Source of the DNA: a virus | Lineage: Duplodnaviria; Caudoviricetes | Strand: one strand, 5' to 3' | Length of the DNA stretch: 62,930 nt | IMG/VR virus record: IMGVR_UViG_3300009164_000073 | Location: 1-62,930 of that record | Shown: piece by piece, positions 1-22,391 of the stretch | Layout of the letters: the number at the start of each line of letters is the position of its first letter | How positions within the stretch are numbered: the stretch's first letter is position 1 | Notes under the pieces: model-generated | The model's database searches: none | The model's input: the letters and a program-made list of their open reading frames with translations, nothing else | What the model was told of the DNA's origin: nothing | Made by a program: the position numbers and the translations under genes

Positions 1-2
1 CC

Positions 3-97
3 ATATAAAAACATACTGGATCTTCTAGTAGGTAAGAAGCTGATAAAAGAAATTGGCGAACGTGGTGTTCGAATCCCACTCTAGTGTGTTTCTATAT
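3..97 (+). ncRNA. tRNA-like element with extended (~18 bp) acceptor-like stem (element E1)
   Basis: ATATAAAAACATACTGGA (3-20) pairs with TCTAGTGTGTTTCTATAT (80-97). Inside are a D-like arm CTTC/GAAG, an arm CTGAT-AAAAGAA-ATTGG and a bulged T-arm GTGGTG-TTCGAAT-CCCAC. No CCA. Preceded by CCA (1-3) and abuts the next tRNA. Confidence 0.6.
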
Positions 98-173
98 GGT
101 AATATAGCATAGTGGCTAATGCAGTTGCTTCATACGCAGCCTATCGTTGGTTCGAGTCCAACTATTACCACCA
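98..173 (+). tRNA. tRNA-Met/Ile2 (CAT)
   Basis: Acceptor GGTAATA/TATTACC, anticodon loop TT-CAT-AC, T-loop TTCGAGT, encoded CCA. Met versus lysidine-Ile cannot be resolved by eye. Confidence 0.9.
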
Positions 174-174
174 A

Positions 175-370
175 GACGTTCCGAGTGTCGTCGGATACTG
201 TGACCCGCAGGATGAGAAGTAGTTTGACAACTACGGGTGGTTCTAGTCAAACCGAACTAGCGTTAGCGACACGAGAGTCTTCCCTGGTCGGGGAGCGGGT
301 GGAAGGTGAGGTCAGACTGGGGCAACCCGGGAAAGGATGCACTAAATTACCGCCGCAGGGAAGAAGCACC
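175..370 (+). ncRNA. GC-rich multi-pseudoknot structured RNA, unknown family
   Basis: Lies between two tRNAs. Hairpins TCCGA/TCGGA, GTAGTT/AACTAC and CTGGG-GCAA-CCCGG; long-range stem TCTTCCCTG(278-286)/CAGGGAAGA(356-364); several loop-complementary segments. Confidence 0.65.
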
Positions 371-377
371 TAATTCA

Positions 378-455
378 GGTCCCATAGTTCAGCCTGGCCT
401 AGAATAACTGCCTGTCACGCAGTAGACACGGGTTCGAATCCCGTTGGGACCGCCA
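378..455 (+). tRNA. tRNA-Asp (GTC)
   Basis: Cloverleaf GGTCCCA/TGGGACC, loop CT-GTC-AC, G discriminator, CCA. Confidence 0.95.
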
Positions 456-478
456 GACATTTTTATAAGTAATACACT

Positions 479-561
479 GCCCCGATGGTGGAATTGGTAG
501 ACACGGTGGTCTTAGAAGCCACTGCTTCGGCATCCGAGTTCGAGTCTCGGTTGGGGCACCA
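479..561 (+). tRNA. tRNA-Leu (TAG)
   Basis: GCCCCGA/TTGGGGC acceptor, loop CT-TAG-AA, variable arm, CCA. Confidence 0.95.
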
Positions 562-662
562 TATATAAATGTACTTAAATCCGTTAAAAGATCAGGTTTG
601 GTATCCCAGTCTCTGCGTTGGCATAGCCCGCATACTTAATACACCTTAGTATGTTTATATAT
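561..662 (+). ncRNA. Long-stem-closed structured element (E2), closing stem related to E1/E3
   Basis: ATATATAAATGTACT (561-575) pairs with AGTATGTTTATATAT (648-662) with 2 G-U pairs. Starts at the CCA of tRNA-Leu and ends 7 nt before tRNA-Val. Confidence 0.5.
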
Positions 663-669
663 GATTTAT

Positions 670-745
670 GGGTCGTTAGCTCAGTTGGTAGAGCGTCTGC
701 CTTACACGCAGAATGTCGGCAGTTCGAGACTGTCACGACCCACCA
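670..745 (+). tRNA. tRNA-Val (TAC)
   Basis: GGGTCGT/ACGACCC, loop CT-TAC-AC, CCA. Confidence 0.95.
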
Positions 746-761
746 TCCGAGGAGAAACTGT

Positions 762-902
762 ATGTCGAGTAAAGAAACGTTAGACAAGGCATACGGTAAT
801 ATGCCTAAAGAAGTAGGCTTCAATGTTGACTGGGGATTCATTCCAAGTTGGCGAGGTGTAAAGTACTATTGGTATACATTAGTACGCAAGGTTACAAGAT
901 AA
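762..902 (+). CDS. small hypothetical protein (46 aa)
   Basis: GAGGAG RBS then ATG at 762 (MSSKETLDK...). The track's upstream extension overlaps tRNA-Val. Confidence 0.6.
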   Translation: MSSKETLDKAYGNMPKEVGFNVDWGFIPSWRGVKYYWYTLVRKVTR

Positions 903-904
903 AT

Positions 905-994
905 GGAATGGTCCCATAATGGTATTGGAGCGGATTGCTAATCCGTCGATCGGCGAAAGTCGGTTTCTGGGTTCAAGTCCCAGTCATTCCGCCA
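905..994 (+). tRNA. tRNA-Ser (GCT)
   Basis: GGAATGG/TCATTCC, loop TT-GCT-AA, long variable arm, G discriminator, CCA. Confidence 0.95.
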
Positions 995-1006
995 GTTTTA
1001 GTTTTT

Positions 1007-1082
1007 GGGGGTTTAGCTCATCTGGGAGAGCGGCAGCTTTGCAAGCTGTAGGTGATCGGTTCGAGTCCGATAACCTCCACCA
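1007..1082 (+). tRNA. tRNA-Ala (TGC)
   Basis: G3:U70 pair, loop TT-TGC-AA, CCA. Confidence 0.95.
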
Positions 1083-1088
1083 AAATAT

Positions 1089-1164
1089 TCCCTAGTAGCT
1101 CAGAGGTAGAAGCACCTGACTGTTAATCAGGGTGTCGGTGGTTCGATCCCACCCTGGGGAGCCA
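1089..1164 (+). tRNA. tRNA-Asn (GTT)
   Basis: TCCCTAG/CTGGGGA, loop CT-GTT-AA, CCA. Confidence 0.95.
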
Positions 1165-1206
1165 GTTTTTTAAATTCTAGCCTATGCTAGACATATATAC
1201 TTTTAC

Positions 1207-1280
1207 GCCCTGCTAGTTAAATGGTATAACTCCTGTTTTGTAATCAGGCGTCGGCAGTTCGATTCTGTCGCGGGGCACCA
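1207..1280 (+). tRNA. tRNA-Thr (TGT)
   Basis: GCCCTGC/GCGGGGC, loop TT-TGT-AA, CCA; U-U mismatch at the base of the anticodon stem. Confidence 0.9.
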
Positions 1281-1295
1281 TTAATTAGGAGACAT

Positions 1296-1919
1296 ATGAA
1301 ATTTGCATTTTTAAATCCAACTGTAATAGCATTAGATGATGTTCCACAGGATGTATTCGATAAACTGTATGATATGGTGCACCTAGCACACACGCATTCA
1401 GATCACGATGATTCAGGGAACCCACAGCTAAGTGTTAGAGGCGGACAGCAAATTCAATTAGTCCCTAACGAGTTTGGTCTAGATACTGATGTACTAAAAG
1501 ACTATATTGAAAAAATAGCACAAGAGTACTTAGATTCCATTCAACAACAAAATCCGTTGGTTAATCTTGCGTCAGTGAAACCTTTGTTGATCTCTGCTTG
1601 GACTATTAAACAAGGTCCAGGGGATTATCAAGCACTTCACAGTCACGAGTCGAACCTAAGCGGAAATATCTATATCGATGTACCAGTGTTGGAAAACGCT
1701 AAACCATCAGATAGTCAAATTGAATTCAAGTTACCAATGACCAAAGACATCGCTCATTTTATCTTTTCAGATAGTTGGAGATTCCACCCAGAGAAAGGCA
1801 AGATGATCGTGTTTCCAGGTCACATACCACACACCGTCTATCCGTGGAACGGACAAGGGCATAGAATTGTTTTAGCCTGGGATGTCCAATTAGTGGATAG
1901 AGCGGTTGACATTAAGTAA
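1296..1919 (+). CDS. putative 2OG-Fe(II) oxygenase (TIGR02466-like)
   Basis: HSH...LSGNIY...FPGHIPHTV...R pattern; GGAG RBS. Confidence 0.75.
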   Translation: MKFAFLNPTVIALDDVPQDVFDKLYDMVHLAHTHSDHDDSGNPQLSVRGGQQIQLVPNEFGLDTDVLKDYIEKIAQEYLDSIQQQNPLVNLASVKPLLISAWTIKQGPGDYQALHSHESNLSGNIYIDVPVLENAKPSDSQIEFKLPMTKDIAHFIFSDSWRFHPEKGKMIVFPGHIPHTVYPWNGQGHRIVLAWDVQLVDRAVDIK

Positions 1920-1934
1920 GAAATAACGTATAAT
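1906..1934 (+). promoter_or_regulatory. consensus sigma70 promoter
   Basis: TTGACA-17 nt-TATAAT, perfect consensus. Confidence 0.9.
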
Positions 1935-1940
1935 AAGTTT

Positions 1941-2200
1941 TGTTGTGTAGCAATACACAACCGGTGAAGCGAAAGGTAGAAGAGGATAGACACATAGGAA
2001 TGAGCTTCACGCTTACTCCGAAACTTACAATCCAACTTGAAACTGGATCGTGTTTATGTGTTCCGATCCCTAATAAACTGTCATTTGTTAATCGGAAATA
2101 TATGGACCTCTGTGTATTGTATTTTGCACGTTGTCAACGAAGATTATAACCCTTCATTGTATATTGTCCGGTCTATTACTTGACCTTTCGTAGATCCGTC
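1941..2200 (+). ncRNA. large pseudoknotted RNA at the 5' end of the rpoZ/DIP1984-like transcript
   Basis: Begins at the predicted TSS with GTTGTGTA-GCAA-TACACAAC. Long-range pairs GTGAAGC/GCTTCAC, CGAAAGGT/ACCTTTCG, AGAGG/CCTCT, ATAGAC/GTCTAT, ACACATAG/TTATGTGT, TTCCGAT/ATCGGAA. Confidence 0.65.
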
Positions 2201-2222
2201 ATTTTTAACACAAAGGAGCCCT

Positions 2223-2447
2223 ATGGCTAGGTATTGTTCGGACGAAGCAGCGAAAATGGTTGGCGGAAGATTTAACTTAGTCTTGGTGGCATCACAGAGA
2301 TCAAGAGAACTTAAAAATGGTTCAATGCAGAGAGTAGAAGGCAAAGATGCCACTACCAATGTAACCGCCTTGAGAGAAATCGAAGAAGGCAAATATACAT
2401 TTCAAGAATATTTAGACAAATTGCACAAGAAGGAAAGACAACTATGA
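2223..2447 (+). CDS. rpoZ: RNA polymerase omega subunit homolog
   Basis: MAR N-terminus, GRFNLVLVASQRSREL and TALREIEEGK match omega motifs; AAGGAG RBS. Confidence 0.85.
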   Translation: MARYCSDEAAKMVGGRFNLVLVASQRSRELKNGSMQRVEGKDATTNVTALREIEEGKYTFQEYLDKLHKKERQL

Positions 2448-3019
2448 ACATCTCTTTAAGAAAAGCCAGTGCGTTACAGAACGCAATCAATGATGCTATC
2501 AAAGGCATCAAGTTCAATCTGTCTGTTGAACTCAATGAGTTCCAGGACGTGGCAGAAGAACTAAAGAAAGCCAATGACGAGCTAATGACAAACGACACAC
2601 GTCGTCAGAAACTGCTGTTGGCATTGTACAACATCCGTGGATTGGTCGGCGCTGCTAATGCCAGCGCAGGTATCGATCTCAAGTTGGCAACTGCCGCATT
2701 CGTTGACAAACGTATTGCACAGTTGGAAACTATCGCTCAAGCAGAGCCACATACCGATCTTAAAGTGATCGCTGGCAAGTTGGACAAGATCCGAAATGAC
2801 AAGAGCGACACTGCTCGTAGCCGTATCTACGGTTACAGCGATACAGTATCAACCACTGTGGTTAGCAAAGAGCAGATCAGTGAAGCTAAGGCTGAGATTC
2901 AAAATCTCAAGAAGCAGAAGCAGAAGCTCAATGACGAAGTTCTTGAGTTAAACATCAAGACAGAAGTTCCTCTGACTGACGATGTGGTGGCAACACTACA
3001 AGCAGAAGGACTACTGTAA
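2444..3019 (+). CDS. coiled-coil protein, DIP1984/DUF6847-like
   Basis: All-helical pattern; motifs IR..V..AN and C-terminal KQKLNDEVLELNIKTEV resemble the DIP1984 family as recalled (not searched). Confidence 0.55.
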   Translation: MNISLRKASALQNAINDAIKGIKFNLSVELNEFQDVAEELKKANDELMTNDTRRQKLLLALYNIRGLVGAANASAGIDLKLATAAFVDKRIAQLETIAQAEPHTDLKVIAGKLDKIRNDKSDTARSRIYGYSDTVSTTVVSKEQISEAKAEIQNLKKQKQKLNDEVLELNIKTEVPLTDDVVATLQAEGLL

Positions 3020-3021
3020 TA

Positions 3022-3227
3022 GACCCCGGTTTACTCTTTTACGTTATAATAAGAGCGTCCCTGAAACGATAGAACAGGGGGTACACTAGGACCTGACCTC
3101 ACAGTCCCTCTTTAAGGGATACTGGAAACTGCCTAGGGTTAGGTTTAACACCTTCTCCAGAAGAACAAATGTTATGGACAGAGTAACCGCTCAGTCTAGG
3201 GCCTATGTGGTGTAGGTAGCTAGACAC
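3022..3227 (+). ncRNA. multi-hairpin/pseudoknot structured RNA, unknown family
   Basis: No ORF. Hairpins CTCTT/AAGAG, CCTG/CAGG, CAGT.CCCT/AGGG.ACTG, TAACA/TGTTA, GTCTAG..CCTATG/TGTAGG..CTAGAC, with complementary loops. Confidence 0.6.
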
Positions 3228-3362
3228 TTTATAAAAGCTCTTTGAAGTTTAACTACACTGGAAAAAGCGAGTAACTGCTAAGTCGACTACACAGTGAAAG
3301 TCTCCAGGAAGATACGGAGTTAGACAGTTTGGTTCGATTCCAACAGAGAGCCTCTATAAAGT
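3226..3362 (+). ncRNA. tRNA-like element with long closing stem and bulged T-arm (E3)
   Basis: ACTTTATAAAAGCTCTTT pairs with AGAGAGCCTCTATAAAGT; T-arm GTTTGG-TTCGATT-CCAAC lies immediately 5' of the closing strand; ends 3 nt before a tRNA. Confidence 0.6.
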
Positions 3363-3365
3363 TAT

Positions 3366-3440
3366 AGCGGGTTGGAGAAGAGGAATCTCGGGAGTCTCAT
3401 AAGCTCCAGATCGGCGGTTCGAATCCGTCACCCGCAACCA
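3366..3440 (+). tRNA. tRNA-Met (CAT), initiator-like
   Basis: 1:72 mismatch (A/A), purine11:pyrimidine24, loop CT-CAT-AA, CCA. Confidence 0.9.
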
Positions 3441-3443
3441 TTT

Positions 3444-3520
3444 CGGAGTGTAGCGCAGCCTGGTAGCGCACCTGGTTTGGGACCAGGGGGTCCAAGGTTC
3501 GAATCCTTGTACTCCGACCA
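3444..3520 (+). tRNA. tRNA-Pro (TGG)
   Basis: CGGAGTG/TACTCCG, loop TT-TGG-GA, CCA. Confidence 0.95.
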
Positions 3521-3538
3521 ATTACTAAAAGGACATAA

Positions 3539-3724
3539 ATGATCAACGAAGAAGATACAAGCAGTGAAGATGCACTAGCAGAGTTCTTAGCTAAGGGTGG
3601 TGTAATACAACAGTTAAAACCAAACCAAAGTGGCAGAGTCGATGGTGCAAGCTATTCTTCTTGGTCAAAGAAAAAACCTTCTGTAAGTCCTTTAGCCAGT
3701 CCTCCAGAGGATCAAGACAGTTAA
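3539..3724 (+). CDS. small hypothetical protein
   Basis: AAGGA RBS; AEFLAKGGVIQ motif typical of a small phage/bacterial protein family. Confidence 0.65.
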   Translation: MINEEDTSSEDALAEFLAKGGVIQQLKPNQSGRVDGASYSSWSKKKPSVSPLASPPEDQDS

Positions 3725-3744
3725 TTATTAAATAGAAGCACGAT

Positions 3745-3820
3745 GCGGGAATAGCTCAGCTGGTAGAGCGATACCTTGCCAAGGTATAGGTCGGGAGTTC
3801 GAACCTCCTTTCCCGCTCCA
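3745..3820 (+). tRNA. tRNA-Gly (GCC)
   Basis: GCGGGAA/TTCCCGC, loop TT-GCC-AA, U discriminator, CCA. Confidence 0.95.
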
Positions 3821-3829
3821 AAGGATAAT

Positions 3830-4396
3830 ATGAAAGTAATAGATCAAAATGATGTGTTTCGCAAATATGATTTTAGCTCAGTGATAACTGAAGCTGACAA
3901 TCAACAGGCAATGGACATTGTTCGAGATATCATAGGCAATGGCAATTACTTTCACAACAGTCCAAAATATCAAACTAAAGAAAACATATTCGCTAGACCA
4001 GAACCCGTTTGGTTAAAGTATAGAATGAGCTTTTTAATGAGTGTGTTTATGTATCTAGGCCGTGAAGTTAAAGTACACGATATGATGGCTTGGTCGTTTA
4101 TGACTAACCTAGCCACAGCAGAAGATCGTGATAAACTTTGGCATCACCATCACAAAAACGGAACCCATATGTTAAGTGGAGTCTTTTATCTACACATTCC
4201 ACCAGACGTAAAAGATCGTGACTATGCTGGAACAGAGATGGCTCCATTCGGTCCTACTCACGAAGAAAAGTTTTTTGTTCGTCCTACCGACAATGCTTGG
4301 TTGATATATCCTTCAAAGGAATGGCATCGTCCAGGCATTGTGCAAAGTGATCAATATCGCTTTATTCTTGCCGCTGACATTGTGATCGAACTATGA
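3830..4396 (+). CDS. putative 2OG-Fe(II) oxygenase
   Basis: WHHH...LSGVFY...YPSKEWHRP...R; start reassigned to the ATG after tRNA-Gly (AAGGA RBS). Confidence 0.75.
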   Translation: MKVIDQNDVFRKYDFSSVITEADNQQAMDIVRDIIGNGNYFHNSPKYQTKENIFARPEPVWLKYRMSFLMSVFMYLGREVKVHDMMAWSFMTNLATAEDRDKLWHHHHKNGTHMLSGVFYLHIPPDVKDRDYAGTEMAPFGPTHEEKFFVRPTDNAWLIYPSKEWHRPGIVQSDQYRFILAADIVIEL

Positions 4397-5100
4397 ACAT
4401 AGCGTGGACACTATATACAGACCCTAAGTATGCTGATGTCAGTCAGTGGAAAGACCTTGTCTACTTTGAACCAGAAGCTCTTTGGCCCTTGGTCATTGAA
4501 GAACGTGGGAGTGCCGATTATACAAAATGTCCGGCTGTTTCGGACTTCTTTGACAATGTATTTGTTATACGTTGCCCTTATGATGTTATAATAAGTTATC
4601 AGCAAGAAGGAGATATGTTTACTACAGATCGACTAGGACAGGATTGGTACAATCAAACGTTCTATCCAAGATTTCCAGTTGTTGATAAAAATGGTAATCT
4701 AGTCAGTTCTTGCATAACACTTCGCATCAATTATCTATTTGTTGCGGATGAGGACGTTGAAATTGAAACCTTCGATGTGCCTTTGCTCTCTAACAATTTA
4801 ACTAGAAACATAAAGATGATTCCGGGCAAGATGAATATACATCGCTGGGTACGGCCTGTGGACTTTACATTCGAAGTAGTAGACTTGACTAAGCCTATCG
4901 AACTAAAGCGTGGTGATCCAATGTTTGCTATCCGCTTTAAAACCGACAGTAAAGTCAAGTTGACTCACATAGACTACAGCGAAGATTTAAAACACGCTGC
5001 TGAAGCTTGTCTAGCTTCTAAGACCTATGTTCCACGCAAAAGCCTCAAGTACAGATACGAGATGGCCAAACGTTTTTTGAAAAATAAAAAATGGTTATGA
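4393..5100 (+). CDS. conserved phage protein (DUF6065-like beta-fold)
   Basis: CPAV...IPG...W.RP...KRGDPM pattern; ATGA overlap with the upstream gene. Confidence 0.6.
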   Translation: MNIAWTLYTDPKYADVSQWKDLVYFEPEALWPLVIEERGSADYTKCPAVSDFFDNVFVIRCPYDVIISYQQEGDMFTTDRLGQDWYNQTFYPRFPVVDKNGNLVSSCITLRINYLFVADEDVEIETFDVPLLSNNLTRNIKMIPGKMNIHRWVRPVDFTFEVVDLTKPIELKRGDPMFAIRFKTDSKVKLTHIDYSEDLKHAAEACLASKTYVPRKSLKYRYEMAKRFLKNKKWL

Positions 5101-5651
5101 AATATCGTATGGATTGTCCGTTTGTAATTGGACAGTTTGAAAAACACAGCGACTTAAAAGAACAGGTACTTTCTGCTATCAATAAAGCGGAAGCTGATCA
5201 TTTAGTTGAGCCAGAAGATAATATGGACATATCTAGGTGTGACTGGAGATTAGGTCGTTGGGATCACACTAGACCGTGGTTTCAATCACTGCAACCTCAT
5301 TGGCACGATCATATGACTGCTGTTAGCAAAGAACTCGGCTACGAGTTTTTTAGACTTAAAGAAATTTGGTTTCAACAGTATAATACAAATGCGCATCACG
5401 GGTGGCACGTACACGGTAGTAATTGGACCAATGTTTATTTTTTAGAAATGCCCGAAGACAGTCCTAAAACTCAATTTATCAATCCATTTAATCAAACAGA
5501 GATAGGAACATTTGAAATCAAAGAAGGTGACATATTAACCTTTCCTAGTTTTGTAGTTCATAGAGCACCGATCAATTTAAGCAATAATAGAAAGACTATT
5601 ATTTCTTGGAATATGGATACTGAAATTGCTCCAGGACTATATCAAGAATAA
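5091..5651 (+). CDS. putative 2OG-Fe(II) oxygenase
   Basis: WFQQY...HGWHVH...FPSFVVHRA...RKTIISWN. Confidence 0.8.
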   Translation: MVMKYRMDCPFVIGQFEKHSDLKEQVLSAINKAEADHLVEPEDNMDISRCDWRLGRWDHTRPWFQSLQPHWHDHMTAVSKELGYEFFRLKEIWFQQYNTNAHHGWHVHGSNWTNVYFLEMPEDSPKTQFINPFNQTEIGTFEIKEGDILTFPSFVVHRAPINLSNNRKTIISWNMDTEIAPGLYQE

Positions 5652-5652
5652 C

Positions 5653-5726
5653 GCGGGGTTGGCATATTGGTTGTGTCCCAGCCTTCCAAGCTGGTTAAAC
5701 GAGTTCGATTCTCGTACCCCGCTCCA
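5653..5726 (+). tRNA. tRNA-Gly (TCC)
   Basis: GCGGGGT/ACCCCGC, loop CT-TCC-AA, CCA. Confidence 0.95.
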
Positions 5727-5732
5727 AATAAT

Positions 5733-5807
5733 CTGGCGTTCGTTCAACGGATAGGACACGATTCTTCTAAAGTCGTTATAGGGGTTCGATTCCCTTACGC
5801 CGGACCA
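5733..5807 (+). tRNA. tRNA-Arg (TCT)
   Basis: CTGGCGT/ACGCCGG, loop CT-TCT-AA, CCA. Confidence 0.95.
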
Positions 5808-5818
5808 GTGTTAAAAAT

Positions 5819-5903
5819 GCGACTGTGGTGAAATAGGTAGACACAAGAGACTTAAAATCTCTCGCTTTCGGGCGTGCCGGTTCGATTCCGGCCAGTCGCA
5901 CCA
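5819..5903 (+). tRNA. tRNA-Leu (TAA)
   Basis: GCGACTG/CAGTCGC, loop CT-TAA-AA, variable arm, CCA. Confidence 0.95.
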
Positions 5904-5907
5904 TTTT

Positions 5908-5940
5908 GAAAGCCCTGCTGGTTGACAGGGCTTTCGTTTG
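5908..5940 (+). terminator. intrinsic terminator ending the tRNA cluster
   Basis: GAAAGCCCTG-loop-CAGGGCTTTC followed by GTTT. Confidence 0.7.
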
Positions 5941-5950
5941 ATTGTATAAT
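5922..5950 (+). promoter_or_regulatory. sigma70 promoter overlapping the terminator
   Basis: TTGACA-17-TATAAT. Confidence 0.85.
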
Positions 5951-5982
5951 ATATGTTAAATAAATGTTCTTAAGGAGTTGGT

Positions 5983-6234
5983 ATGATTAAAGAGTACGAA
6001 AGCATTCAAGGTGATAATTTAGAAGAAGCTGATATGGCTCAACTGCTATCAGTGACTGCTAATGCAGATGCTGTAGCACGAGTTCGAGCTGCCATTCCAA
6101 CAGGACCTAGCCAAAGCCATTGTGACGAATGCGGAGAAGAAATCCCAATGGCACGTCAAAAAGCAGTGCGTGGCTGTAAGACCTGCATTGACTGCCAAAA
6201 TCTACTAGATAGGATTAAGAAAAATTATGGTTGA
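5983..6234 (+). CDS. TraR/DksA C4 zinc-finger protein
   Basis: CDECGEEIP..RQ.AV.GC.TCIDCQ; N-terminal EEADMA acidic tip; AAGGAG RBS. Confidence 0.85.
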   Translation: MIKEYESIQGDNLEEADMAQLLSVTANADAVARVRAAIPTGPSQSHCDECGEEIPMARQKAVRGCKTCIDCQNLLDRIKKNYG

Positions 6235-13313: not shown

Positions 13314-14162
13314 ATGGAACGATATAAGGTAGCCCCAACATACGAAGAACACTGGTTAGAGACAGATAGACCTCAACCACTATCCGACACAAGAATAGAA
13401 ACTGTTATACAAGGTATTCTAGATGGTCGGTTAGGTATGGATATTACTGATAAAGTTTATACTGATTTTAAAAAAGAAACCAGCGATTGGATTTTTAATA
13501 CTCAACTAAACAGCCTAACCGGGTTTGATTCATTTAATCGATTAGATATTACCCAAGGCTGTACACAGTTTATTGACACTATCTATATGAAAGGTCCCGT
13601 CCAGGTGTTACAGGGTGATTATAAGTATCATCATAGATTAGGCAACTGGGGACGAACCGTTGGCAATCTATCTGCTAATATTCCACTAATCATAGCAATG
13701 CCCTTTCCTAGCACAGGATCGGTACACACTCAAATGGAGGATATATTGAATGAATGTTTGGACAAAAAGATTGAAGTACATATCGACGGCGCTTGGATCA
13801 GTTGCTGTCGTGATATTGATTTTGATTTTAGTAATGATGCTATTAGATCCGTTGGCATCAGTCTTAGCAAAGGTCTTGGTCTCGGCTGGAACCGCGTAGG
13901 ACTTAGGTGGACAAAAGACGACAAGCCAGATGCAATTACTTTAATGAATGATTTTAGAATGAACCTTAGAGCAGTATCAATGATTGGCTTACATTTTATA
14001 AGAAATTTCCCCAGTGATTACCTATGGACAACCTACGGTGATATCTACCATAAAGTCTGCAAAGATTTTAATCTGACTCCTACCAAGAGTATACATCTTG
14101 CACTTAGAAACGGTCAAGCCGTTGGCATTAGCCCATTAATAAGATATGCCTCAAACAATTAA
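13314..14162 (+). CDS. PLP-dependent fold-type I enzyme (paralog of 10277..11176)
   Basis: VHIDGAW, SLSKGLG, RVGLR; shares QGCTQ.ID with its paralog. Confidence 0.7.
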   Translation: MERYKVAPTYEEHWLETDRPQPLSDTRIETVIQGILDGRLGMDITDKVYTDFKKETSDWIFNTQLNSLTGFDSFNRLDITQGCTQFIDTIYMKGPVQVLQGDYKYHHRLGNWGRTVGNLSANIPLIIAMPFPSTGSVHTQMEDILNECLDKKIEVHIDGAWISCCRDIDFDFSNDAIRSVGISLSKGLGLGWNRVGLRWTKDDKPDAITLMNDFRMNLRAVSMIGLHFIRNFPSDYLWTTYGDIYHKVCKDFNLTPTKSIHLALRNGQAVGISPLIRYASNN

Positions 14163-15414
14163 TCCACCAACATTTTGTATGCACCCATTTACTGGGCTTG
14201 CTACTAGAGAAGACGGCGCAATACAGGTATGTTGTCGTAGCCATCCTATTGGTAATATAAAAGATAACACCCTGGAAGAGATCTGGAACGGAGACAATAT
14301 GAAACGTATCCGTAAGCAAGTGCTCACAGGGTATCGACCAAAGGAGTGTGAGCCCTGTTTTAGTTTAGAAGACCAAGGTGTTGAAAGTTTACGGCAACGA
14401 CACGTACTTGGAAAAATCCCAGAGGCACGGATTAATTTATATCCCAATGCCGTTAGTACAATGCGTAAAGATCATACAATGCCGTTTGAGATTCCTACTA
14501 TGGAACTTAAACTTAATAACTTATGTAATTTAAAATGTCGTATGTGTCATCCGGGGGATAGTACCGCTTGGAATGATTGGGCAGAAGTTAAAGAGTTTTA
14601 CAAAGGTGAAGGGCAGGTTATATTCGATATCGTTGAAGAACACAATTTAGAAAAGAAACCGTTACTAGATAAGTTTGAAGATAATCCCAATTGGTGGATT
14701 AGTTTAGAAAAGAACTTACCCTACTTCCGACGTGTGGAATTCGCAGGAGGCGAGCCTCTAATGGATCCGCAACACTTTCGAATATTAGATATGCTTGCTC
14801 CGTATGGTGATCAAATTGAAATCAAATATGCCACTAACTTAACCACGCTAGGTAAGAGCAATCGCACAGTTTGGCAATACTGGCCTAAATTTAAATCAGT
14901 AGCGGTAAATGTAAGTATTGACGGTATTGGCACTAGCTATGAATACATTCGCGGCAATGCCAGCTGGGCTGAACTTATAAACAACATTAAACAAATACAA
15001 ACTATTCCAAATATTAGTCGCATTGTGGGAGCAGTGGCTGTGCAGGTCAGTAACATTCTCATACTTGACAAAATGATAGAATATTTTTTAAACGATTTAG
15101 GTATTGTATTTTATACTAATATGGTACAATATCCCAACGTATTATCTGCACAAGTTATTCCTAACGAATTAAAATCAATAGCTATTATTCGTTTAAAAGA
15201 TGTTAGGGAATTAGTTCCGACTTTTAAATTAGTAAAAGAACATCCGATGTTAGAAGAGCTAACTTACAAACAAATCGACGGCATAATTAATTTCATCCTA
15301 GCAAAGGATAATACCCACTTGTGGAATGATTGCATAGAGTATAACCGTCGATTAGATGTCACAAGAGAACAGAGTTTCTTTGATGTAACTCCAGAGTTTA
15401 AACCCTATGTTTAA
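14146..15414 (+). CDS. radical SAM protein with N-terminal twitch/SPASM-like domain
   Basis: CNLKCRMC, AGGEP, SIDG; N-terminal FC.HP...CC...C..C. Confidence 0.9.
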   Translation: MPQTINPPTFCMHPFTGLATREDGAIQVCCRSHPIGNIKDNTLEEIWNGDNMKRIRKQVLTGYRPKECEPCFSLEDQGVESLRQRHVLGKIPEARINLYPNAVSTMRKDHTMPFEIPTMELKLNNLCNLKCRMCHPGDSTAWNDWAEVKEFYKGEGQVIFDIVEEHNLEKKPLLDKFEDNPNWWISLEKNLPYFRRVEFAGGEPLMDPQHFRILDMLAPYGDQIEIKYATNLTTLGKSNRTVWQYWPKFKSVAVNVSIDGIGTSYEYIRGNASWAELINNIKQIQTIPNISRIVGAVAVQVSNILILDKMIEYFLNDLGIVFYTNMVQYPNVLSAQVIPNELKSIAIIRLKDVRELVPTFKLVKEHPMLEELTYKQIDGIINFILAKDNTHLWNDCIEYNRRLDVTREQSFFDVTPEFKPYV

Positions 15415-16303
15415 AGTTACCAGTGCTTGGCCGCATCAGGATCAATTAAAGGTTGAATGGAATCTTGGCAAAAGGTGCAACTACGATTGTACATATTGTC
15501 CGGCAAGCATACACGATCACCATAGCCCTCATACTGACATAAATTTGTTGGAGGCAACTGTAGATAAACTGTGTGCGATTGGTAAGCCATTGCGCATTAG
15601 CCTAACAGGAGGCGAACCTTGTGTACACCCGGACATTGAAGACTTATTAGAATACTTTAGACGCAAAGATGTGTTCTGGGTAAATTTGACAACTAACGGT
15701 ACACGCCCCAGTAACTGGTACCTACAAAATGAGATGTTTTTCAACCACTTAGTGTTCAGTCTGCATTTCGAACACGATTGGGAACGGGTGCATAGAAATA
15801 TCATACAGTACCAGGCAGGGACTCAAACAGATTTCTTTGTCAATGTTATGGCACATCATAAACATATGGACAGTGTTCGCAAGGTAGTTAAAGAGTACAG
15901 CGATCGTGGAATAAAATATGCTGTTAGGCGTATTCGATGGACTGACGGCGACCACAATATATTTGATGATTTAAAATATGAAGGTAAAGATCTTGAATGG
16001 ATACTGAATCAAGATTCTACTGTAAAACCCAATTGTAGGATAGATGAGTCAGAAATAATGCACAGTAACGATGTTATTAAAAAACATTTAAATCAATTTA
16101 AAGATTGGTCTTGCAACGCCGGACTCGAAAGTCTTATGATAAATTGGGACGGTGATGTTCATCGTGCGACCTGTAGAGTCGGTGGCAGTCTAGGTAACAT
16201 TTATAAAGGTAGCTTTGTTGTTCCTAGCAACCCCATTGTATGTACTAGAGACTGGTGTACCTGTGCTGCAGATATTCCATTAACAAAAATTAAAAATGAT
16301 TAA
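15407..16303 (+). CDS. radical SAM protein, C-terminal SPASM/twitch
   Basis: CNYDCTYC, TGGEP, TTNG; C-terminal C..G...C...C.C. Confidence 0.9.
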   Translation: MFKVTSAWPHQDQLKVEWNLGKRCNYDCTYCPASIHDHHSPHTDINLLEATVDKLCAIGKPLRISLTGGEPCVHPDIEDLLEYFRRKDVFWVNLTTNGTRPSNWYLQNEMFFNHLVFSLHFEHDWERVHRNIIQYQAGTQTDFFVNVMAHHKHMDSVRKVVKEYSDRGIKYAVRRIRWTDGDHNIFDDLKYEGKDLEWILNQDSTVKPNCRIDESEIMHSNDVIKKHLNQFKDWSCNAGLESLMINWDGDVHRATCRVGGSLGNIYKGSFVVPSNPIVCTRDWCTCAADIPLTKIKND

Positions 16304-17402
16304 AACTACCGCAATTAGACTGCTAAATCCTACAGCAATGTCGGTTACCTGGGATACTGGTCGCAGATGCAACTACGATTGTACATATTGTGAATCAACA
16401 AGACACGACTTAAAAAGTTCATATCACAGTTTTGAAGAACTTAAAAATACATATCATTTTATCAAAGAGTGGACCACAGAATACAATAGCAGACGAAAAG
16501 AAAACAAAGGAGTTAACATTGTGTTCACTGGCGGTGAACCAACAATTAATCCTAATTTCTGGAACCTTGTAGAATATATTAAAAACGATAGCGACAATTT
16601 TAATTTACAATTAACTACTAACGGTACTTGGGGCCCTAGTTATAGAGAAAAAATATTAAAATATCTCGACTGTGTTACTATCAGTTGGCACGCCGAAGGA
16701 CCGGCTAATCTCAAGCAACGAGCCATAGATAACATATTACATCTAAGCAACAGTGAAATCGTATTGCAGGTTAATCTTATGCTACACGCTGATCACTGGG
16801 ATGAAGCTATGGACGTCTGCAAGTTGCTAGATGACAATAATGTAAAGTATAATCCTAGACCAATTGGAGATGGAAACATAACTCGAGTTGGGTGGTTTAT
16901 CGATGCCGATGGCACTAATCGCAGAACATCTCATACCTATAGTAAAGAACAGCAAGAATGGTTTTTTAAAAAAATGGGAAGTAGTTTGCCTGGGTCTGAA
17001 AAAGCAGAAGGTAACCAATTAGGACGTGGGTGTTGTGGAGGTCGCTGCCTCGAAGCAAAAGTAGACGACCAGTGGCAAACTGTTAAGTTAGTTAATACTG
17101 AATTTAAAGGTTGGCAATGTATGGTTGATTGGTTTTTCCTACACATCGATCAACATACAGGACTAGTCTATCATCATCAAACCTGTCAGGCATTGCATAA
17201 TCAAAAAAGAGGAGCACTAGGACATCTAGACGATAAAGGACAAATGCTAACTGATCTTAAATTAAGATTAGAAAATCCTAGTCCTATTATTTGTCCCAAT
17301 CAAAGATGCGGGTGTGGAATGTGTGTTCCTAAGGCACGGGATCCTGTAGATTTTAAAATTATGTGGCAGGCGCTAACAGATGTGCCAGCTCAGGAAATGT
17401 AG
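16296..17402 (+). CDS. radical SAM protein, Cys-rich C-terminus
   Basis: CNYDCTYC, TGGEP; GCCGGRC and CPNQRCGCGMC. Confidence 0.9.
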   Translation: MIKTTAIRLLNPTAMSVTWDTGRRCNYDCTYCESTRHDLKSSYHSFEELKNTYHFIKEWTTEYNSRRKENKGVNIVFTGGEPTINPNFWNLVEYIKNDSDNFNLQLTTNGTWGPSYREKILKYLDCVTISWHAEGPANLKQRAIDNILHLSNSEIVLQVNLMLHADHWDEAMDVCKLLDDNNVKYNPRPIGDGNITRVGWFIDADGTNRRTSHTYSKEQQEWFFKKMGSSLPGSEKAEGNQLGRGCCGGRCLEAKVDDQWQTVKLVNTEFKGWQCMVDWFFLHIDQHTGLVYHHQTCQALHNQKRGALGHLDDKGQMLTDLKLRLENPSPIICPNQRCGCGMCVPKARDPVDFKIMWQALTDVPAQEM

Positions 17403-18789
17403 ATTTAAAATCTGTGCCGCGCTGATTATCCATTACTGTAATATATTCTCTAAAATCGGGTAACAAATGAGTATGGTCTTGAGCATCCATCCAATCTAGT
17501 ATACCTTCCCAGCGTTTCCAACCATAGGGATTTTTTTCCCAAAAATCTGCATCTTGAGTATAGTTATCCCATAACCAGTCTTGCAATTCAGCAAACAGTT
17601 TACGAACTTCGAATTTATCTTCCTTAGGCAGCACACGTAAACTTAACCACGTAGGAATCCACAATAAATGAACACTGGCTAATCCGCCACCGGTAACCTG
17701 TCCTGCAACATTTAATTCAAAATTTAATTTTTTAAATCCGCTTCGGACTTTCCATTTAAGCAATTCGGGTATATGTTTTATATTCAGTATTTGCGCTGCC
17801 AATTCAATAGTGGTAGTAATATTATCAGGAGTGTTCTCTAATCTATGCAAATTTTTCTCTACAACATTAAAATCCATCGGATAGCGAATGTAATTTACAC
17901 GATCCCCAATTCCATCAAGACTTACTGCAAATTTAACTTTTCTAAAATGCTTCCATATATTAATGATAGTTTCATCTATTAAGATTCCATTAGAATTATA
18001 TCTAAGAAGTATTTTATCAGCATAGCCCCTACGAATTATTTCTTCAAGAAATATTTTGTGTTCTTTAATTAAAAGAGGCTCACCGCCAGCAAAGTATATT
18101 TGCTTTAAGTTTGGAATCTGGTTGTATATATCGTTCCAAAAAGATGGATGTTCGTACCAATAGTTGTTGAACTCTTTTTGTTCCCAGAACATTTGATTTT
18201 TTATCTGAGAACTTTGAAAAATAGGAAATACTTTTTTGTGCTCTGGAACCCACATTGAACTATCGTGCGGACTACACATAATACATTTTAGATTGCAGGT
18301 ATGACCTAATCGTAAATCTAGATACTCTAACTTATAAGGAACAGTGCCGTCTTCTTCAGTATTATTAACTAGTTCGGGAATATTAGCATTTTCAGTTTTA
18401 AACCACGTAACTGTTTCCCAAATCCTCTTACTAGCGATCTCAGACTCTTCTTCATCGAAACATTTCTTACAACTTGCAGGAATTTTTCCCTCGAGCATAG
18501 TTGTTCTAACAGACTTCATATAGTTATTATTAAATGCACCCGCCGGCGTATCTTTGCCGAAGTTAGTTGGAGTACCATCTTCTTTTTTTACAAGGCCTAC
18601 TCCGTAGTCACCGGTATCTGCTCCACTGGCGTTTGCTACACAGCACAGTCGAGCATCGCCGTTTGGCCTTGTTGCTAGGTGATTCCACGGCAGCACACAA
18701 AAAGATTTTGACCCAGACAGGTCTTCAATAACTTTTTGCCATTTACCTATTTCGGTTGTTTCAGGTTGAATCCAGTATACATCTTTCAT
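17359..18789 (-). CDS. radical SAM protein with N-terminal twitch-like domain
   Basis: CNLKCIMC, AGGEP, SLDG; start set at MKDVYW. Confidence 0.9.
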   Translation of the reverse strand: MKDVYWIQPETTEIGKWQKVIEDLSGSKSFCVLPWNHLATRPNGDARLCCVANASGADTGDYGVGLVKKEDGTPTNFGKDTPAGAFNNNYMKSVRTTMLEGKIPASCKKCFDEEESEIASKRIWETVTWFKTENANIPELVNNTEEDGTVPYKLEYLDLRLGHTCNLKCIMCSPHDSSMWVPEHKKVFPIFQSSQIKNQMFWEQKEFNNYWYEHPSFWNDIYNQIPNLKQIYFAGGEPLLIKEHKIFLEEIIRRGYADKILLRYNSNGILIDETIINIWKHFRKVKFAVSLDGIGDRVNYIRYPMDFNVVEKNLHRLENTPDNITTTIELAAQILNIKHIPELLKWKVRSGFKKLNFELNVAGQVTGGGLASVHLLWIPTWLSLRVLPKEDKFEVRKLFAELQDWLWDNYTQDADFWEKNPYGWKRWEGILDWMDAQDHTHLLPDFREYITVMDNQRGTDFKSTFPELAHLLAPAT

Positions 18790-18829
18790 AATAGTAATTA
18801 TGTCTATATAACTGCCGCTAAATATTTCT

Positions 18830-19327
18830 ATGTTATACAAAGGTAATTTTTCAAATATTTTTGAGCCCGAGGCATTGCAATTTATTCTTGCAAATCAAGG
18901 GGACCTTCGCCCGCAGACTAATATCGATAGTTACCAATTGGATAATTTCGGGAAGTGGAAATCTGCTGGGTATGATATGAACAAAATACGTTGGGAAGTA
19001 TTTTCCGGAGATACACCTAAATTTAATTTTAAAATATCTCTGCCATTCAAAGGAACGATCAAATGGTGGTTTGCAAAACTACATCCAGGCGATATGTTTC
19101 CGTTACATTTAGATACGTTTCCGGATAATACAAATGTAAGACGATATTGGATAGCCTGTCAAGATTATATACCTGGACATATTTTTGCCTACGATGATAA
19201 AATTTTAACAGGATATAAAGCTGGTGATATTTTTATGTTCGATCACAGCACTGTGTTACACGGATCTGCTAATATAGGATTTACTCCTAAGATATCTTTA
19301 CAGGTTGCTGTTACAGATGATCAGTAA
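18830..19327 (+). CDS. 2OG-Fe(II)/AspH-like oxygenase
   Basis: PG.MFPLHLD...HGSANIG..PK. Confidence 0.7.
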   Translation: MLYKGNFSNIFEPEALQFILANQGDLRPQTNIDSYQLDNFGKWKSAGYDMNKIRWEVFSGDTPKFNFKISLPFKGTIKWWFAKLHPGDMFPLHLDTFPDNTNVRRYWIACQDYIPGHIFAYDDKILTGYKAGDIFMFDHSTVLHGSANIGFTPKISLQVAVTDDQ

Positions 19328-20103
19328 TGAGTAAGATGTGCGATGCCTATCTTGGCACGAAACGCCTGGGTGAATACCCCGTCAACTCTTAGACTAAATG
19401 TCTGTTTGTTTATCTTGCCGCCTGAATGCCAATCTTGATCATTGAAGAAAGTTGCGTGACTATTAACTAGTACCTTTGTATCCGTTTCAGCATCCCATAT
19501 ATAAAAGGGCTTGTCTAAGTTAGTACGCAAATGGATGAACTCGTGTCTATGATTAAAGTAGTCGTGCTCATCAGGTAGTATTAAATCACGATGCATTGCC
19601 ATTTGACAATCGTGTTCTGCTTTAAAGAATATAATACGACCTAGATATTCGAAGACCCCATCGGTGACTAGATTTTCTAACCACTCCTTAAGTTCTGGAA
19701 ATAATTGAGAATCCTTCGTCCATTCTTTTTCTTGAAATCGTGTTTCCCATCCACCCTCTTCAGTTTTTAAAAATATAAACTGATATGGGTCATACGCACC
19801 TAATGCCAACTTAAGAAACAGCATAAATTGATCACGATTCTTGTACTCTCCTAATTCTTTACCCAAAATTCTAATTTCGTGATCTTCAGGGAGACTGTAA
19901 TATTCCTCTAATGCCTTATACGGCGGCTTAAATGATAATTCGTAGACACCTTCAAATCCTCCAGGCTTCTCCATATTACCTTCTTTCTTATGTTCAGCCA
20001 GAACAAGACCTTTGCATATCTTATAATGCAGAGATTTAAATTCTTCAATATTAAGATAAGAATCTAAATTGAGAAATGGTTTGTTGTCAATACCGCGTAT
20101 CAT
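19321..20103 (-). CDS. non-heme Fe oxygenase-like protein (HxD...H)
   Basis: MHRD...FNDQDWH...RVDG; paralog of 11169..11885. Confidence 0.6.
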   Translation of the reverse strand: MIRGIDNKPFLNLDSYLNIEEFKSLHYKICKGLVLAEHKKEGNMEKPGGFEGVYELSFKPPYKALEEYYSLPEDHEIRILGKELGEYKNRDQFMLFLKLALGAYDPYQFIFLKTEEGGWETRFQEKEWTKDSQLFPELKEWLENLVTDGVFEYLGRIIFFKAEHDCQMAMHRDLILPDEHDYFNHRHEFIHLRTNLDKPFYIWDAETDTKVLVNSHATFFNDQDWHSGGKINKQTFSLRVDGVFTQAFRAKIGIAHLTHY

Positions 20104-20132
20104 ATTGATATTTACCACATAAATATCGCACT

Positions 20133-20804
20133 ATGAATATAACCGATTGGAATCTTTATTACAACCTCGAAGACACTGAATACGTCAGAGCCAACTTAGT
20201 TTACACTCCCTATGTAAGTCCAGACAATACAACTTTCTGTATGAGCTTTAATCGAGACCGTGCTTACCACAAAAATGAAAATGAAAATATTCTATGGTCT
20301 GAAGAATTACTAACCGATAGATTTTTAAAAGAAATAAAATTTCACAAACAGGCCTCTGCCACAATTCCCACTTTACAGATCAAAGATATTGATCACAAAG
20401 AAAGAAAAATCTTTTTAGAATGGCACGGCAATGATTTTTATATGCAAGGACTAAAAGAAGGTGGGTATAATAAAGTATTACCTAATTGGCAAGAGCAATG
20501 GATTGCATTGATAGAGAAAATGCGAGCTGCGGATATATTTAAAATTAGCTTACATCCCAACAGTTGGGTGGCACATCAAGGAACACTGATTCCATTTAAC
20601 TGGTTCTTCTGCTATCGAGAGAACGATGAATCTGTTACCCTGAGATCCCTGTTGATACAAATTAGCTCTGGACGGCAAGAGAAACTAGGAACAATAGATC
20701 TAGATCAATTACAGAGTCCTAGACAACTACAGCAAATAGCATTTAATAGTTTTAGACATAACTATCCCACGGAGTTAATTGACGATGTTTTATCAAAATC
20801 TTAA
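20133..20804 (+). CDS. protein-kinase-like fold, degenerate catalytic motifs
   Basis: FLKEI helix, P..IKDID, IFLEW hinge, SLHPNS (catalytic-loop position), FNWF (DFG position). Confidence 0.45.
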   Translation: MNITDWNLYYNLEDTEYVRANLVYTPYVSPDNTTFCMSFNRDRAYHKNENENILWSEELLTDRFLKEIKFHKQASATIPTLQIKDIDHKERKIFLEWHGNDFYMQGLKEGGYNKVLPNWQEQWIALIEKMRAADIFKISLHPNSWVAHQGTLIPFNWFFCYRENDESVTLRSLLIQISSGRQEKLGTIDLDQLQSPRQLQQIAFNSFRHNYPTELIDDVLSKS

Positions 20805-21831: not shown

Positions 21832-22391
21832 TGGCTGCTGTAAAATTAATTGAACACGATTTAACGTTTGTCCACATACCTAAAAGTGCTGGGTCGAGTG
21901 TTGTTCGATGGTTGACTAGAATGCCATATCAAATGATTAAAGGTCATCCGTCGTTGACTATAATTAAAGAACAATGGCCAGTTACGCAAACTTTTGCTGT
22001 TGTAAGGAATCCTTGGGCACGAATGGTTAGCGCATATTTCTATCTAAAACAATACGGATTCTATTGGGAAGATAACAATATCGCTTCCGTTGAAGAATTT
22101 CCAACCTGGAATGATTTTGTTGATCGGCTAGACTATGATACTAAAAGTTGGAATACCTTAACTACCAATCAATGTGAGTGGATTACTGATGGAGTGACCT
22201 ATCTTTTTAAAGCAGAAACACTAGATCAAGAATTCAATGTAATACAAAAACTACTACGTCGCGAAGATCCGTTACCCTATATCAATACATCGGACCACGA
22301 AGACTATCGTACATACTATACCGATGCTCAGAAGGCAAAAATAGGTCGAGCCTTTGAAAAAGACATTGACCTATACAAGTACACGTTCTAG
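21831..22391 (+). CDS. sulfotransferase (family 2-like)
   Basis: HIPKSAGSS (5'-PSB), VRNPWARMVSAY (3'-PB). Confidence 0.85.
   Translation: MAAVKLIEHDLTFVHIPKSAGSSVVRWLTRMPYQMIKGHPSLTIIKEQWPVTQTFAVVRNPWARMVSAYFYLKQYGFYWEDNNIASVEEFPTWNDFVDRLDYDTKSWNTLTTNQCEWITDGVTYLFKAETLDQEFNVIQKLLRREDPLPYINTSDHEDYRTYYTDAQKAKIGRAFEKDIDLYKYTF

Follow-up and report, generated by a model that had tools for sequence, protein, structure and literature searches.

The DNA analysed here, which we refer to as the window, is the 62,930-nucleotide (nt) viral record IMGVR_UViG_3300009164_000073 (Caudoviricetes), and it encodes on its + strand a structured non-coding RNA, RNA1 (approximately 1937–2205), together with p191, a helical protein of 191 amino acids (aa) whose gene lies at 2444–3019. 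Sequence comparison and structure prediction suggest that RNA1 and p191 make up a new phage RNA–protein module, probably a ribonucleoprotein, and we put the probability of this reading at roughly one half. Some form of functional coupling between the two is very likely, and RNA1 itself is almost certainly a genuine independent RNA. An initial annotation of this DNA had listed a promoter, an RNA, rpoZ, the helical protein, a second RNA, the element E3 and tRNAs in this order, and each was present where stated: the order on the + strand is promoter, RNA1, rpoZ, p191, RNA2, E3, tRNA-Met and tRNA-Pro, inside a tRNA array.

A first search with p191 gave 80 related viral loci (94 relatives), in which the DNA of RNA1 was more conserved than the genes, with blastn matches in 74/80 loci compared with 30/80 for rpoZ. 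Folded as a single sequence, the RNA upstream of the gene beat all 200 shuffles (z −3.4). The consensus fold of 43 distinct aligned copies contained 49 pairs, and compensatory double changes occurred in 35 of these; shuffles gave 16.7 ± 1.8 such pairs, with none of 500 reaching 35, and sliding the partners by 1–3 columns gave 9–13. In this consensus 97.6% of cells were paired, and the covariation score was 0.395 versus at most 0.088 in the slid controls. The fold consists of several hairpins enclosed by a long closing helix, P1, in which 1962–1991 pairs with 2171–2198 (23 pairs in three segments, 12 compensatory, 97.7–99.7% of cells paired) and whose 3′ strand holds an invariant TTGACC at 2181–2186. 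The 5′ hairpin P0 occupies 1943–1960 (7 pairs, 7/7 compensatory), and the P2/P3 arm at 2052–2107 (14 pairs, 11 compensatory) ends in a conserved terminal loop, TGTCATTTG. The limits given for RNA1 (∼265 nt) are approximate: the promoter and those homologues that directly adjoin a tRNA define the 5′ end, and the 3′ end is set by the closing pair that comes last, at 2198. The 288-nt stretch that follows the promoter is without a conserved reading frame: of 121 unique homologues only one kept the 69-aa frame of the window intact, and among 1406 indel runs 1145 had lengths other than multiples of three. The covariance models of Rfam 15, including GOLLD, ROOL, 6S, tmRNA, RNase P and T-box, gave no match at E ≤ 1 in 1936–2222.

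The conserved unpaired bases of RNA1 are UG dinucleotides. They belong to YUGY motifs, six to eight per RNA, at an exact spacing of 7 nt, so the repeated TTGT motifs of the initial annotation proved to be real in this more general form. Repeats 1 and 2 (UG at 2079–2080 and 2086–2087) lie in the terminal loop of P2/P3. Repeats 3–8 lie at 2109–2168 in the junction, where UG begins at 2111, 2118, 2125 and 2132 and, past an optional hairpin Hd (∼2135–2156), at 2158 and 2165. The junction array can be written as four units of YUG-N4, Hd and two more repeats that end in UUGUCC, and its phase was exact in 67/67 parsed homologues. In these 67 sequences core 1 read CUGU in 64 and core 2 YUGU in 60; core 3 was UUGC in 40, UUGU in 13 and UUGA in 13; cores 4, 5 and 6 were UUGU in 56, in 45 (with UUGC in 16) and in all 67, respectively. 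The bases of the 4-nt spacers vary freely, and just UG is conserved per heptad. Hd varies in length and sequence and is missing in four homologues (L021, L033, L050 and L069), where the six heptads are contiguous; Hd is therefore an insertion, one that holds the array together. In the whole 62.9 kb of the window the four-repeat pattern is present a single time (expected number 0.01), and Tandem Repeats Finder detected no tandem array in 1936–2222.

Further loci were gathered through p191 (372 relatives in IMG/VR and at least 477 in Joint Genome Institute (JGI) metagenomes), and RNA1 was located in them with an nhmmer profile, which misses GC-rich distant copies. Of 158 viral loci, 156 had RNA1 on the same strand as p191 and no more than 330 nt before it; the other two were L106, which has 39 nt of sequence ahead of the gene, and L154, in which the RNA follows the gene. 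Among 80 metagenome loci, 76 showed the same arrangement, and in the remaining four no more than 155 nt of upstream DNA was available. These loci contained 140 distinct p191 proteins, 128 of them with at least 300 nt of upstream DNA. For these 128 genes, with identities down to 46%, RNA1 lay upstream in 127 and downstream in one and was absent from none. The linkage between the protein homologues and the RNA that the initial annotation had called for is thus far beyond ordinary synteny. The flanking tRNAs and oxygenase genes differ between loci while RNA1 and p191 stay paired, and one locus (L016, 580–3971) contains two complete RNA1–p191 modules in tandem with an HNH endonuclease gene (2704–3105) between them. 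As RNA1 and p191 are adjacent across hundreds of large freshwater phages, as well as in the cultured phages of Caulobacter and Brevundimonas described below, they probably work together, perhaps as one particle.

The distribution outside this group of loci was surveyed from both the protein and the RNA side. A tblastn search of GenBank phages with p191 matched just the Caulobacter phages CcrColossus and CcrPW, at 28% identity, and hhalign aligned the p191 family profile with gp272 of CcrColossus over 187 columns (probability 97.95, E 3.2e-13). In both phages the gene order is reversed: an unannotated gap of 284 nt (CcrColossus) or 292 nt (CcrPW) lies directly 3′ of the p191 homologue. Within the gap are a 5′ hairpin that differs in compensatory fashion between the two phages, inner hairpins, a closing helix formed by GGTGGAAGCGG with CCGCTTCCAC, and six TTG at 7-nt spacing, the last of them in TTGTCC; the fold of the CcrColossus gap has a z of −6.7. 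Homologues of gp272 are present in seven Brevundimonas jumbo phages (28–33% identity). In the three of these seven that were examined (Kikimora, Domovoi and Bambus), the gene is directly followed by an unannotated gap of 286–314 nt in which a 5′ hairpin and a closing helix accompany five or six UG spaced 7 nt apart. The uncultured L154, L241, L256 and L258 likewise have the protein before the RNA, and L258 retains the P3 loop sequence UUGUCAUUUGC. Rfam gave no match at the RNA1-like sites of L239, L154, L256, L258 and L241; about 600 nt past the RNA1-like element of L258, at 5635–5701 on the − strand, there is a sub-threshold match to the Rfam family freshwater-2 (41.2 bits, gathering threshold 49.9). 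When IMG/VR was scanned from the RNA side, for six TTG heptads ending in TTGTCC, 27 matches were obtained. Plain heptanucleotide tandem repeats accounted for 22 of them, and 5/5 matches with varied spacers adjoin a p191 homologue on the same strand. A protein–RNA unit, as had been proposed, is consistent with a link that holds in either gene order, in distant cultured phages and in a tandem duplication.

In CcrColossus no tRNA is annotated within 3.5 kb of the module; the constant feature is therefore the RNA–protein pair and not the tRNA array. Neither an omega nor a SutA homologue was found among the neighbours of gp272, which include only a ComF-like phosphoribosyltransferase. The CcrColossus RNA would be co-transcribed as a 3′ extension of the gp272 message. 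A promoter-like site of gp272 in CcrColossus (TTGACA, 17 nt, TAAAAC) was noted by eye at 3440–3500 of L239. A tblastn search with P0143 gave only a weak partial match. P0150 and P0124, each used as a single divergent query, recovered no viral contigs, so that p191 relatives at 30–45% identity are sparsely represented among the loci analysed.

These data bear on the simplest alternative, that RNA1 and p191 have no functional link and are neighbours by descent only. Most loci do belong to a single broad clade of freshwater jumbo phages in which the layout of the tRNA array is conserved. Against shared descent as the whole explanation, however, the pair stays together while flanking genes, rpoZ, RNA2 and tRNAs vary; it is kept in inverted order and with other neighbours in the Caulobacter and Brevundimonas phages, whose p191 homologues have 20–33% protein identity; it was duplicated as a unit in L016; and every non-repetitive match of the RNA-first scan has a p191 homologue. 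We therefore disfavour this explanation, which we consider hardly tenable.

RNA1 has its own promoter, a sigma-70-type TTGACA-17-TATAAT at 1906–1934 (+ strand) that matches the consensus at 12/12 positions. A near-consensus promoter was present in 46 of 53 distinct upstream regions, ending 1–2 nt before a conserved AGUUUUG. In L033, L061 and L158 RNA1 starts right behind the CCA end of a tRNA, and the remaining four regions have weaker hexamers, as judged by eye. RNA levels were taken from four freshwater metatranscriptomes of four studies (X1–X4), compared on window 1600–3800, as the word depth of assembled contigs; such depths, which are not read counts, sum related phages, may include DNA in the RNA libraries and are unfit for ranking genes. 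In bins 1970–2191 the depth of RNA1 contigs was 2465–2529 in X1, 0–240 in X2, 1.4–38 in X3 and 172–712 in X4, versus 0–95, 0–6.5, 0–7.5 and 0–9.5, respectively, for p191, and in 4/4 metatranscriptomes RNA1 contigs were much deeper than the neighbouring genes. RNA contigs end at 2187–2190 in X1 (two contigs), X3 and X4; positions 2192–2339 of the window have no RNA-contig cover and are uninformative. These data give a hint, though not proof, that RNA1 is a stable and abundant RNA.

RNA1 might instead be a cis-acting leader or untranslated region that controls p191, perhaps through feedback by p191 as in ribosomal-protein leaders, or that promotes read-through of the tRNA array by RNA polymerase. 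It lies on the same strand directly upstream of p191, in many loci 10–20 nt ahead of the start codon. A search of window 1700–3900 revealed no terminator-like site on the + strand, in agreement with the lack of an evident terminator in the initial annotation, and genes for omega and for a weakly SutA-like protein are nearby. A possible alternative hairpin followed by a U-run was seen by eye at the 3′ end of RNA1. In a rough regular-expression tally of 72 rows, a few of which are not RNA1, the hexamer 17 nt past TTGACC was a U-run in 35, TATAAT-like in 10 and of another kind in 27. The invariant TTGACC could double as the −35 element of a downstream gene. A cis-acting role is at odds, however, with the position of the RNA downstream of the gene in CcrColossus and CcrPW, in the Brevundimonas phages and in L154, L241, L256 and L258. 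It also has to accommodate the complete separate promoter that stands between RNA1 and p191 in L061, L149 and L158, the loci in which rpoZ sits between the two, and RNA1 contigs far deeper than those of p191. On balance we judge such a role to be unlikely.

The AlphaFold2 model of p191 is a helical bundle, almost wholly helical (mean predicted local distance difference test, pLDDT, 86.9), in which a short N-terminal strand pairs with a C-terminal strand. A profile search placed p191 in a family of 1427 clusters at 50% identity with E ≤ 1e-3 (277 with E ≤ 1e-30). The family, of at least 2783 clusters at 90% identity, is almost purely viral and unannotated, its members being named ‘hypothetical’ or, by JGI, ‘YdcH (DUF465)’. 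A pattern scan of 185,579 species genomes, a narrow method for prophage or cellular copies, gave 54 matches, none of them a p191 relative. Across 17 homologues with identities down to 20%, residues M1, L5, R6, K7, R65, L81 and A85 are invariant and A8, L57, G76, K159, D164 and N170 nearly so. Co-folding of four copies, a multimer prediction suggested by the initial annotation, gave a score of 0.63 (runs 0.63, 0.66 and 0.51), with 0.00 for the best control. The contacts agreed in at least 83%, partner pLDDT was at least 81, and the interface ran symmetrically along residues 24–144. The mark used was reached by 20/30 solved homomers and 1/23 single chains in a calibration made on two copies, not four. 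The prediction thus supports self-association of p191 and is silent on RNA.

The initial annotation had likened p191 to the DIP1984/DUF6847 family. The best solved fold match in both Foldseek and VIA-align was 3KDQ, an uncharacterised Corynebacterium diphtheriae protein, which we take to be DIP1984 itself, the entry title saying only ‘C. diphtheriae’. Foldseek gave a probability of 0.98, E 0.059 and template modelling (TM) scores of 0.40/0.48; VIA-align gave Z 10.5 with 142/152 residues aligned at a root-mean-square deviation of 6.7. These scores are within the chance range for helical folds, for which a VIA-align Z below 13 is not decisive, so the fold likeness is suggestive and not decisive. 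In the ESM Atlas, the neighbour cluster of p191 has PF20935 (DUF6847) in 19% of its members (score 0.92). The likeness therefore stood in fold and language-model features; it did not stand in the family hidden Markov models (HMMs). The DIP1984 HMM (NF038048, cut-off 70 bits) did not match p191 at E ≤ 1 or the six-frame translated record at E ≤ 10, and the DUF6847 HMM (PF20935, cut-off 27 bits) matched neither p191 nor the record at E ≤ 10. PF20935 was not among the 25 of 103 families shown for 48 p191 homologues at E ≤ 10, and its HMM matched none of gp272, L154, P0124, P0143 and P0150. In addition, p191 is about 40 residues longer than DIP1984/DUF6847 proteins. The name DUF465/YdcH (PF04325) was rejected: 4/48 homologues match it, with a best E of 0.96, its members have ∼70 aa, and the structure compared for it, PDB 1zhc, matches only residues 124–170 of p191 (E 0.0024). 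Among predicted viral structures, p191 is matched far more closely than by 3KDQ, at TM 0.77–0.92, by proteins of CcrColossus, Vibrio phage Vp_R1 and Erwinia phage pEa_SNUABM_47, and more weakly by proteins of Catovirus and Yasminevirus.

A ribonucleoprotein best fits the combination of a same-strand linkage that is independent of gene order, a phased single-stranded array and a predicted self-associating protein with an invariant basic patch. In the mechanism we propose, RNA1 would be transcribed early from its consensus promoter, or cut out of a tRNA precursor, and would fold with its long closing helix around a multi-helix junction. The junction would present six YUGY motifs single-stranded at exact 7-nt spacing, with two more in a hairpin loop. 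The protein p191, made from the same strand, would form at least a symmetric dimer with the basic patch R6, K7, R65 and K159, and several copies of it may bind the YUGY array. We infer the physical binding, the heptads as its site and the early timing. Several points weigh against this reading. Since most loci were gathered through p191, they are those of related phages, and some of the co-location is inherited. The homology between RNA1 and the RNAs of the Caulobacter and Brevundimonas phages is one of shared architecture (nhmmer E 0.37 on CcrColossus), and in the Brevundimonas phages the YUGY core is relaxed to UG(C/U). Searches of p191 in Pfam, PHROGs, NCBIfam and PADLOC gave nothing above cut-offs and hence no recognised RNA-binding domain. 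The predicted interface is that of a two-fold dimer, with no obvious ring or filament. The limits of the contig depths given above apply here as well, and as RNA1 is more conserved than the adjacent genes, its depth is inflated.

An alternative that we regard as possible, though improbable, is that RNA1 acts alone, as a sponge or decoy that would titrate a host protein or nuclease recognising single-stranded YUGY. In this view p191 would be only a helper, such as a chaperone, stabiliser or processing factor, or else an early gene expressed alongside. Sponge RNAs typically carry short motifs in phase. RNA1 has a consensus promoter of its own, is apparently much more abundant than the p191 message, and in the clade of the window lies within a tRNA array. 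Its YUGU motif also equals U33-G34-U35 of the Tyr, His, Asn and Asp anticodon loops, which colicin E5 recognises and cuts according to two reports (PMC1635277, PMC1669751). A free-standing decoy, however, needs no strictly adjacent gene, yet the linkage was 128/128 and survived inversion and duplication, and in the Brevundimonas phages the core is often UGC. In five complete related genomes tRNA-guanine transglycosylase (TGT) was found in 0/5, QueC weakly in 1/5 and PTPS in 5/5. With TGT and QueC so rare, action of a phage 7-deazaguanine (queuosine) pathway on RNA1 was unsupported, and this gene content likewise lends no support to the anticodon-loop likeness. In a related and distinctly more doubtful scheme, the YUGU array would mimic a row of Tyr/His/Asn/Asp (G/Q-U-N) anticodon loops, and an RNA1–p191 particle, as a new class of phage ribonucleoprotein, would soak up a host enzyme. 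The seven bases of each unit would correspond to the length of an anticodon loop, with U-G-U at U33-G34-U35, and the target would be a defence anticodon nuclease of the colicin E5 kind or a TGT. Such mimicry would protect translation during infection and explain the place of the module in the tRNA array.

A type III toxin–antitoxin-like system, in which an abundant RNA neutralises the adjacent protein by direct binding, also has to be weighed. In the type III system ToxIN, the genes for an RNA and for the protein bound by it are neighbours on one strand, and the RNA is in excess. The layout of promoter, RNA, weak stop and protein resembles toxIN, the RNA contigs are much deeper than the protein message, and the RNA carries repeated motifs. 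On the other hand, RNA1 lacks the tandem 36-nt units of ToxI (Tandem Repeats Finder, 1936–2222), and p191 has no nuclease-like fold; PADLOC matched 0 families for p191 and for gp272. Lytic jumbo phages carry the module, the pattern scan of species genomes gave no instance of it, and its gene order varies, being reversed in several lineages. We consider a system of this type very improbable.

The ribonucleoprotein reading can be set beside several known systems. Genes for GOLLD and ROOL RNAs are frequently found close to tRNA islands, in one case with GOLLD downstream of a Met-tRNA, and for ROOL no protein partner is reported to be known (10.1101/2024.12.08.627333). Like them, RNA1 and RNA2 are phage-encoded structured non-coding RNAs, here in a phage tRNA array beside tRNA-Met. 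Unlike them, RNA1 is smaller, Rfam-negative and equipped with a phased YUGY array, and it differs from ROOL in its strictly linked protein gene. In HutP and TRAP, an oligomeric protein reads short motifs at fixed spacing on single-stranded RNA, and HutP reads UAG with 4-nt spacers, a 7-nt period. The array of RNA1 has the same period, which we treat as a possible functional analogy and not as membership: its motif is YUGY and not NAG, p191 is all-helical and of another fold, and RNA1 would be a stable RNA and not an attenuator. The stable RNAs C and D of phage T4 are small RNAs inside the phage tRNA cluster that are processed with the tRNAs, and RNA1 resembles them, by description, in lying in a phage tRNA cluster; we know of no protein linked to them. 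Literature searches, judged by titles and the starts of abstracts with supplements unseen, found no description of this RNA or of a function for DUF6847/DIP1984, and none about an RNA in CcrColossus, Dolichocephalovirinae or vB_BpoS phages. As RNA1 is Rfam-negative and nothing was found in print, we regard the RNA1–p191 module, with its proposed mechanism, as a system of a new kind.

RNA1 is strongly covarying, apparently abundant and widespread in jumbo phages, yet absent from Rfam, and p191 would be its dedicated partner from a very large unannotated family. Most ‘ornate’ phage RNAs have no known partner, which has blocked functional studies; here the genome names one. The pair is present in cultured phages, CcrColossus or CcrPW on Caulobacter crescentus and jumbo phages on Brevundimonas pondensis, so that its binding, its structure and the phenotypes of knock-outs are directly testable, and the exact 7-nt YUGY phasing offers a precise hypothesis for mutation. 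If RNA1 and p191 do form a ribonucleoprotein, it would represent a new mode of RNA recognition by an all-helical protein and a new player in the phage takeover of the host RNA or translation machinery.

The other elements of the locus are optional neighbours and not core parts of the module. The open reading frame (ORF) at 2223–2447 (+ strand, 74 aa) is an rpoZ homologue, matched by PF01192 (RNA_pol_Rpb6) at 39.5 bits (cut-off 26) and by TIGR00690 at 37.5 (cut-off 23.6), and a phage homologue of omega suggests tampering with host RNA polymerase. In the 128 distinct p191 genes, rpoZ lay between RNA1 and p191, the arrangement given in the initial annotation, in just 49, downstream of p191 in 12, and was not seen in the locus in 67. 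The picture of a protein sandwiched between two RNAs was likewise not conserved. RNA2 (3021–3231, + strand), located by iterated nhmmer in 132 of 238 loci and usually ∼5 nt past the p191 stop, was adjacent to p191 in 67 of 135 distinct genes; four loci (L064, L092, L127 and L158) contain a copy at another position. Its consensus from 44 sequences has 19 pairs, 10 of them compensatory, while the single-sequence fold of RNA2 plus E3 is unremarkable (z −1.2). RNA2 contigs had depths of 72–640 in X1–X3 and 13.5–195 in X4 and start at 3034 in two studies, and Rfam gave no RNA2 match at E ≤ 1 in window 3020–3365. RNA2 is a second undescribed class of structured RNA, a frequent neighbour outside the core.

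Altogether 346 nt of non-coding DNA separate p191 from tRNA-Met(CAT) at 3366–3440, which is followed by tRNA-Pro(TGG) at 3444–3520 and the rest of the tRNA array, all on the + strand; in many loci tRNA-Met stands 10–13 nt past the p191 stop. The tRNA-like element E3 (3237–3357, + strand) combines an acceptor-like stem of 8 bp with a long central arm and a T-arm-like hairpin in which a G-C pair is swapped for C-G. It occurs in 19 loci, and its consensus from eight sequences has 32 pairs, 7 compensatory, the acceptor-like and T-arm-like helices alone being conserved. ARAGORN (five option sets) and the Rfam tRNA model found nothing at 3237–3357, and E3 was rejected as a true tRNA; one RNA contig joins 3228 to 3362 without it. 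A 61-aa ORF at 3539–3724 scores 24.6 bits against the RNA-polymerase-binding domain of SutA, below the threshold of 29.3, and tblastn showed its conservation in some of the related loci.

The window covers part of the genome of a large phage (CheckV completeness 17%); complete related phages have 320–374 kb. DNA similarity searches with window 1900–3400 gave no match among GenBank phages. The tRNA array occupies positions 1–6000, where 14 tRNA genes, every one on the + strand, are mixed with 2OG-Fe(II) oxygenase genes. The 2OG-FeII_Oxy_5 genes are at 1296–1919, 3830–4396 and 5091–5651, and their placement inside the array hints at RNA or tRNA modification. At 5905–5955, directly after tRNA-Leu, a G+C-rich hairpin (AGCCCTG...CAGGGCT) seen by eye overlaps a second perfect TTGACA-17-TATAAT promoter; Rfam gave just a chance-level isrJ match there, on the opposite strand. 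An ORF of 3262 aa at 39039–48827 has no Pfam match at E ≤ 1e-5. The auxiliary genes of the window encode radical SAM proteins, ThyX, PhoH, NifU/IscA, a clamp-loader-like AAA protein and a piece of DNA polymerase III alpha. Seven radical SAM proteins (one also with SPASM) lie at 14146–26463 on both strands, together with a sulfotransferase and a gene resembling adenosine phosphosulfate kinase, and this cluster could be a pathway for peptide or nucleotide modification.

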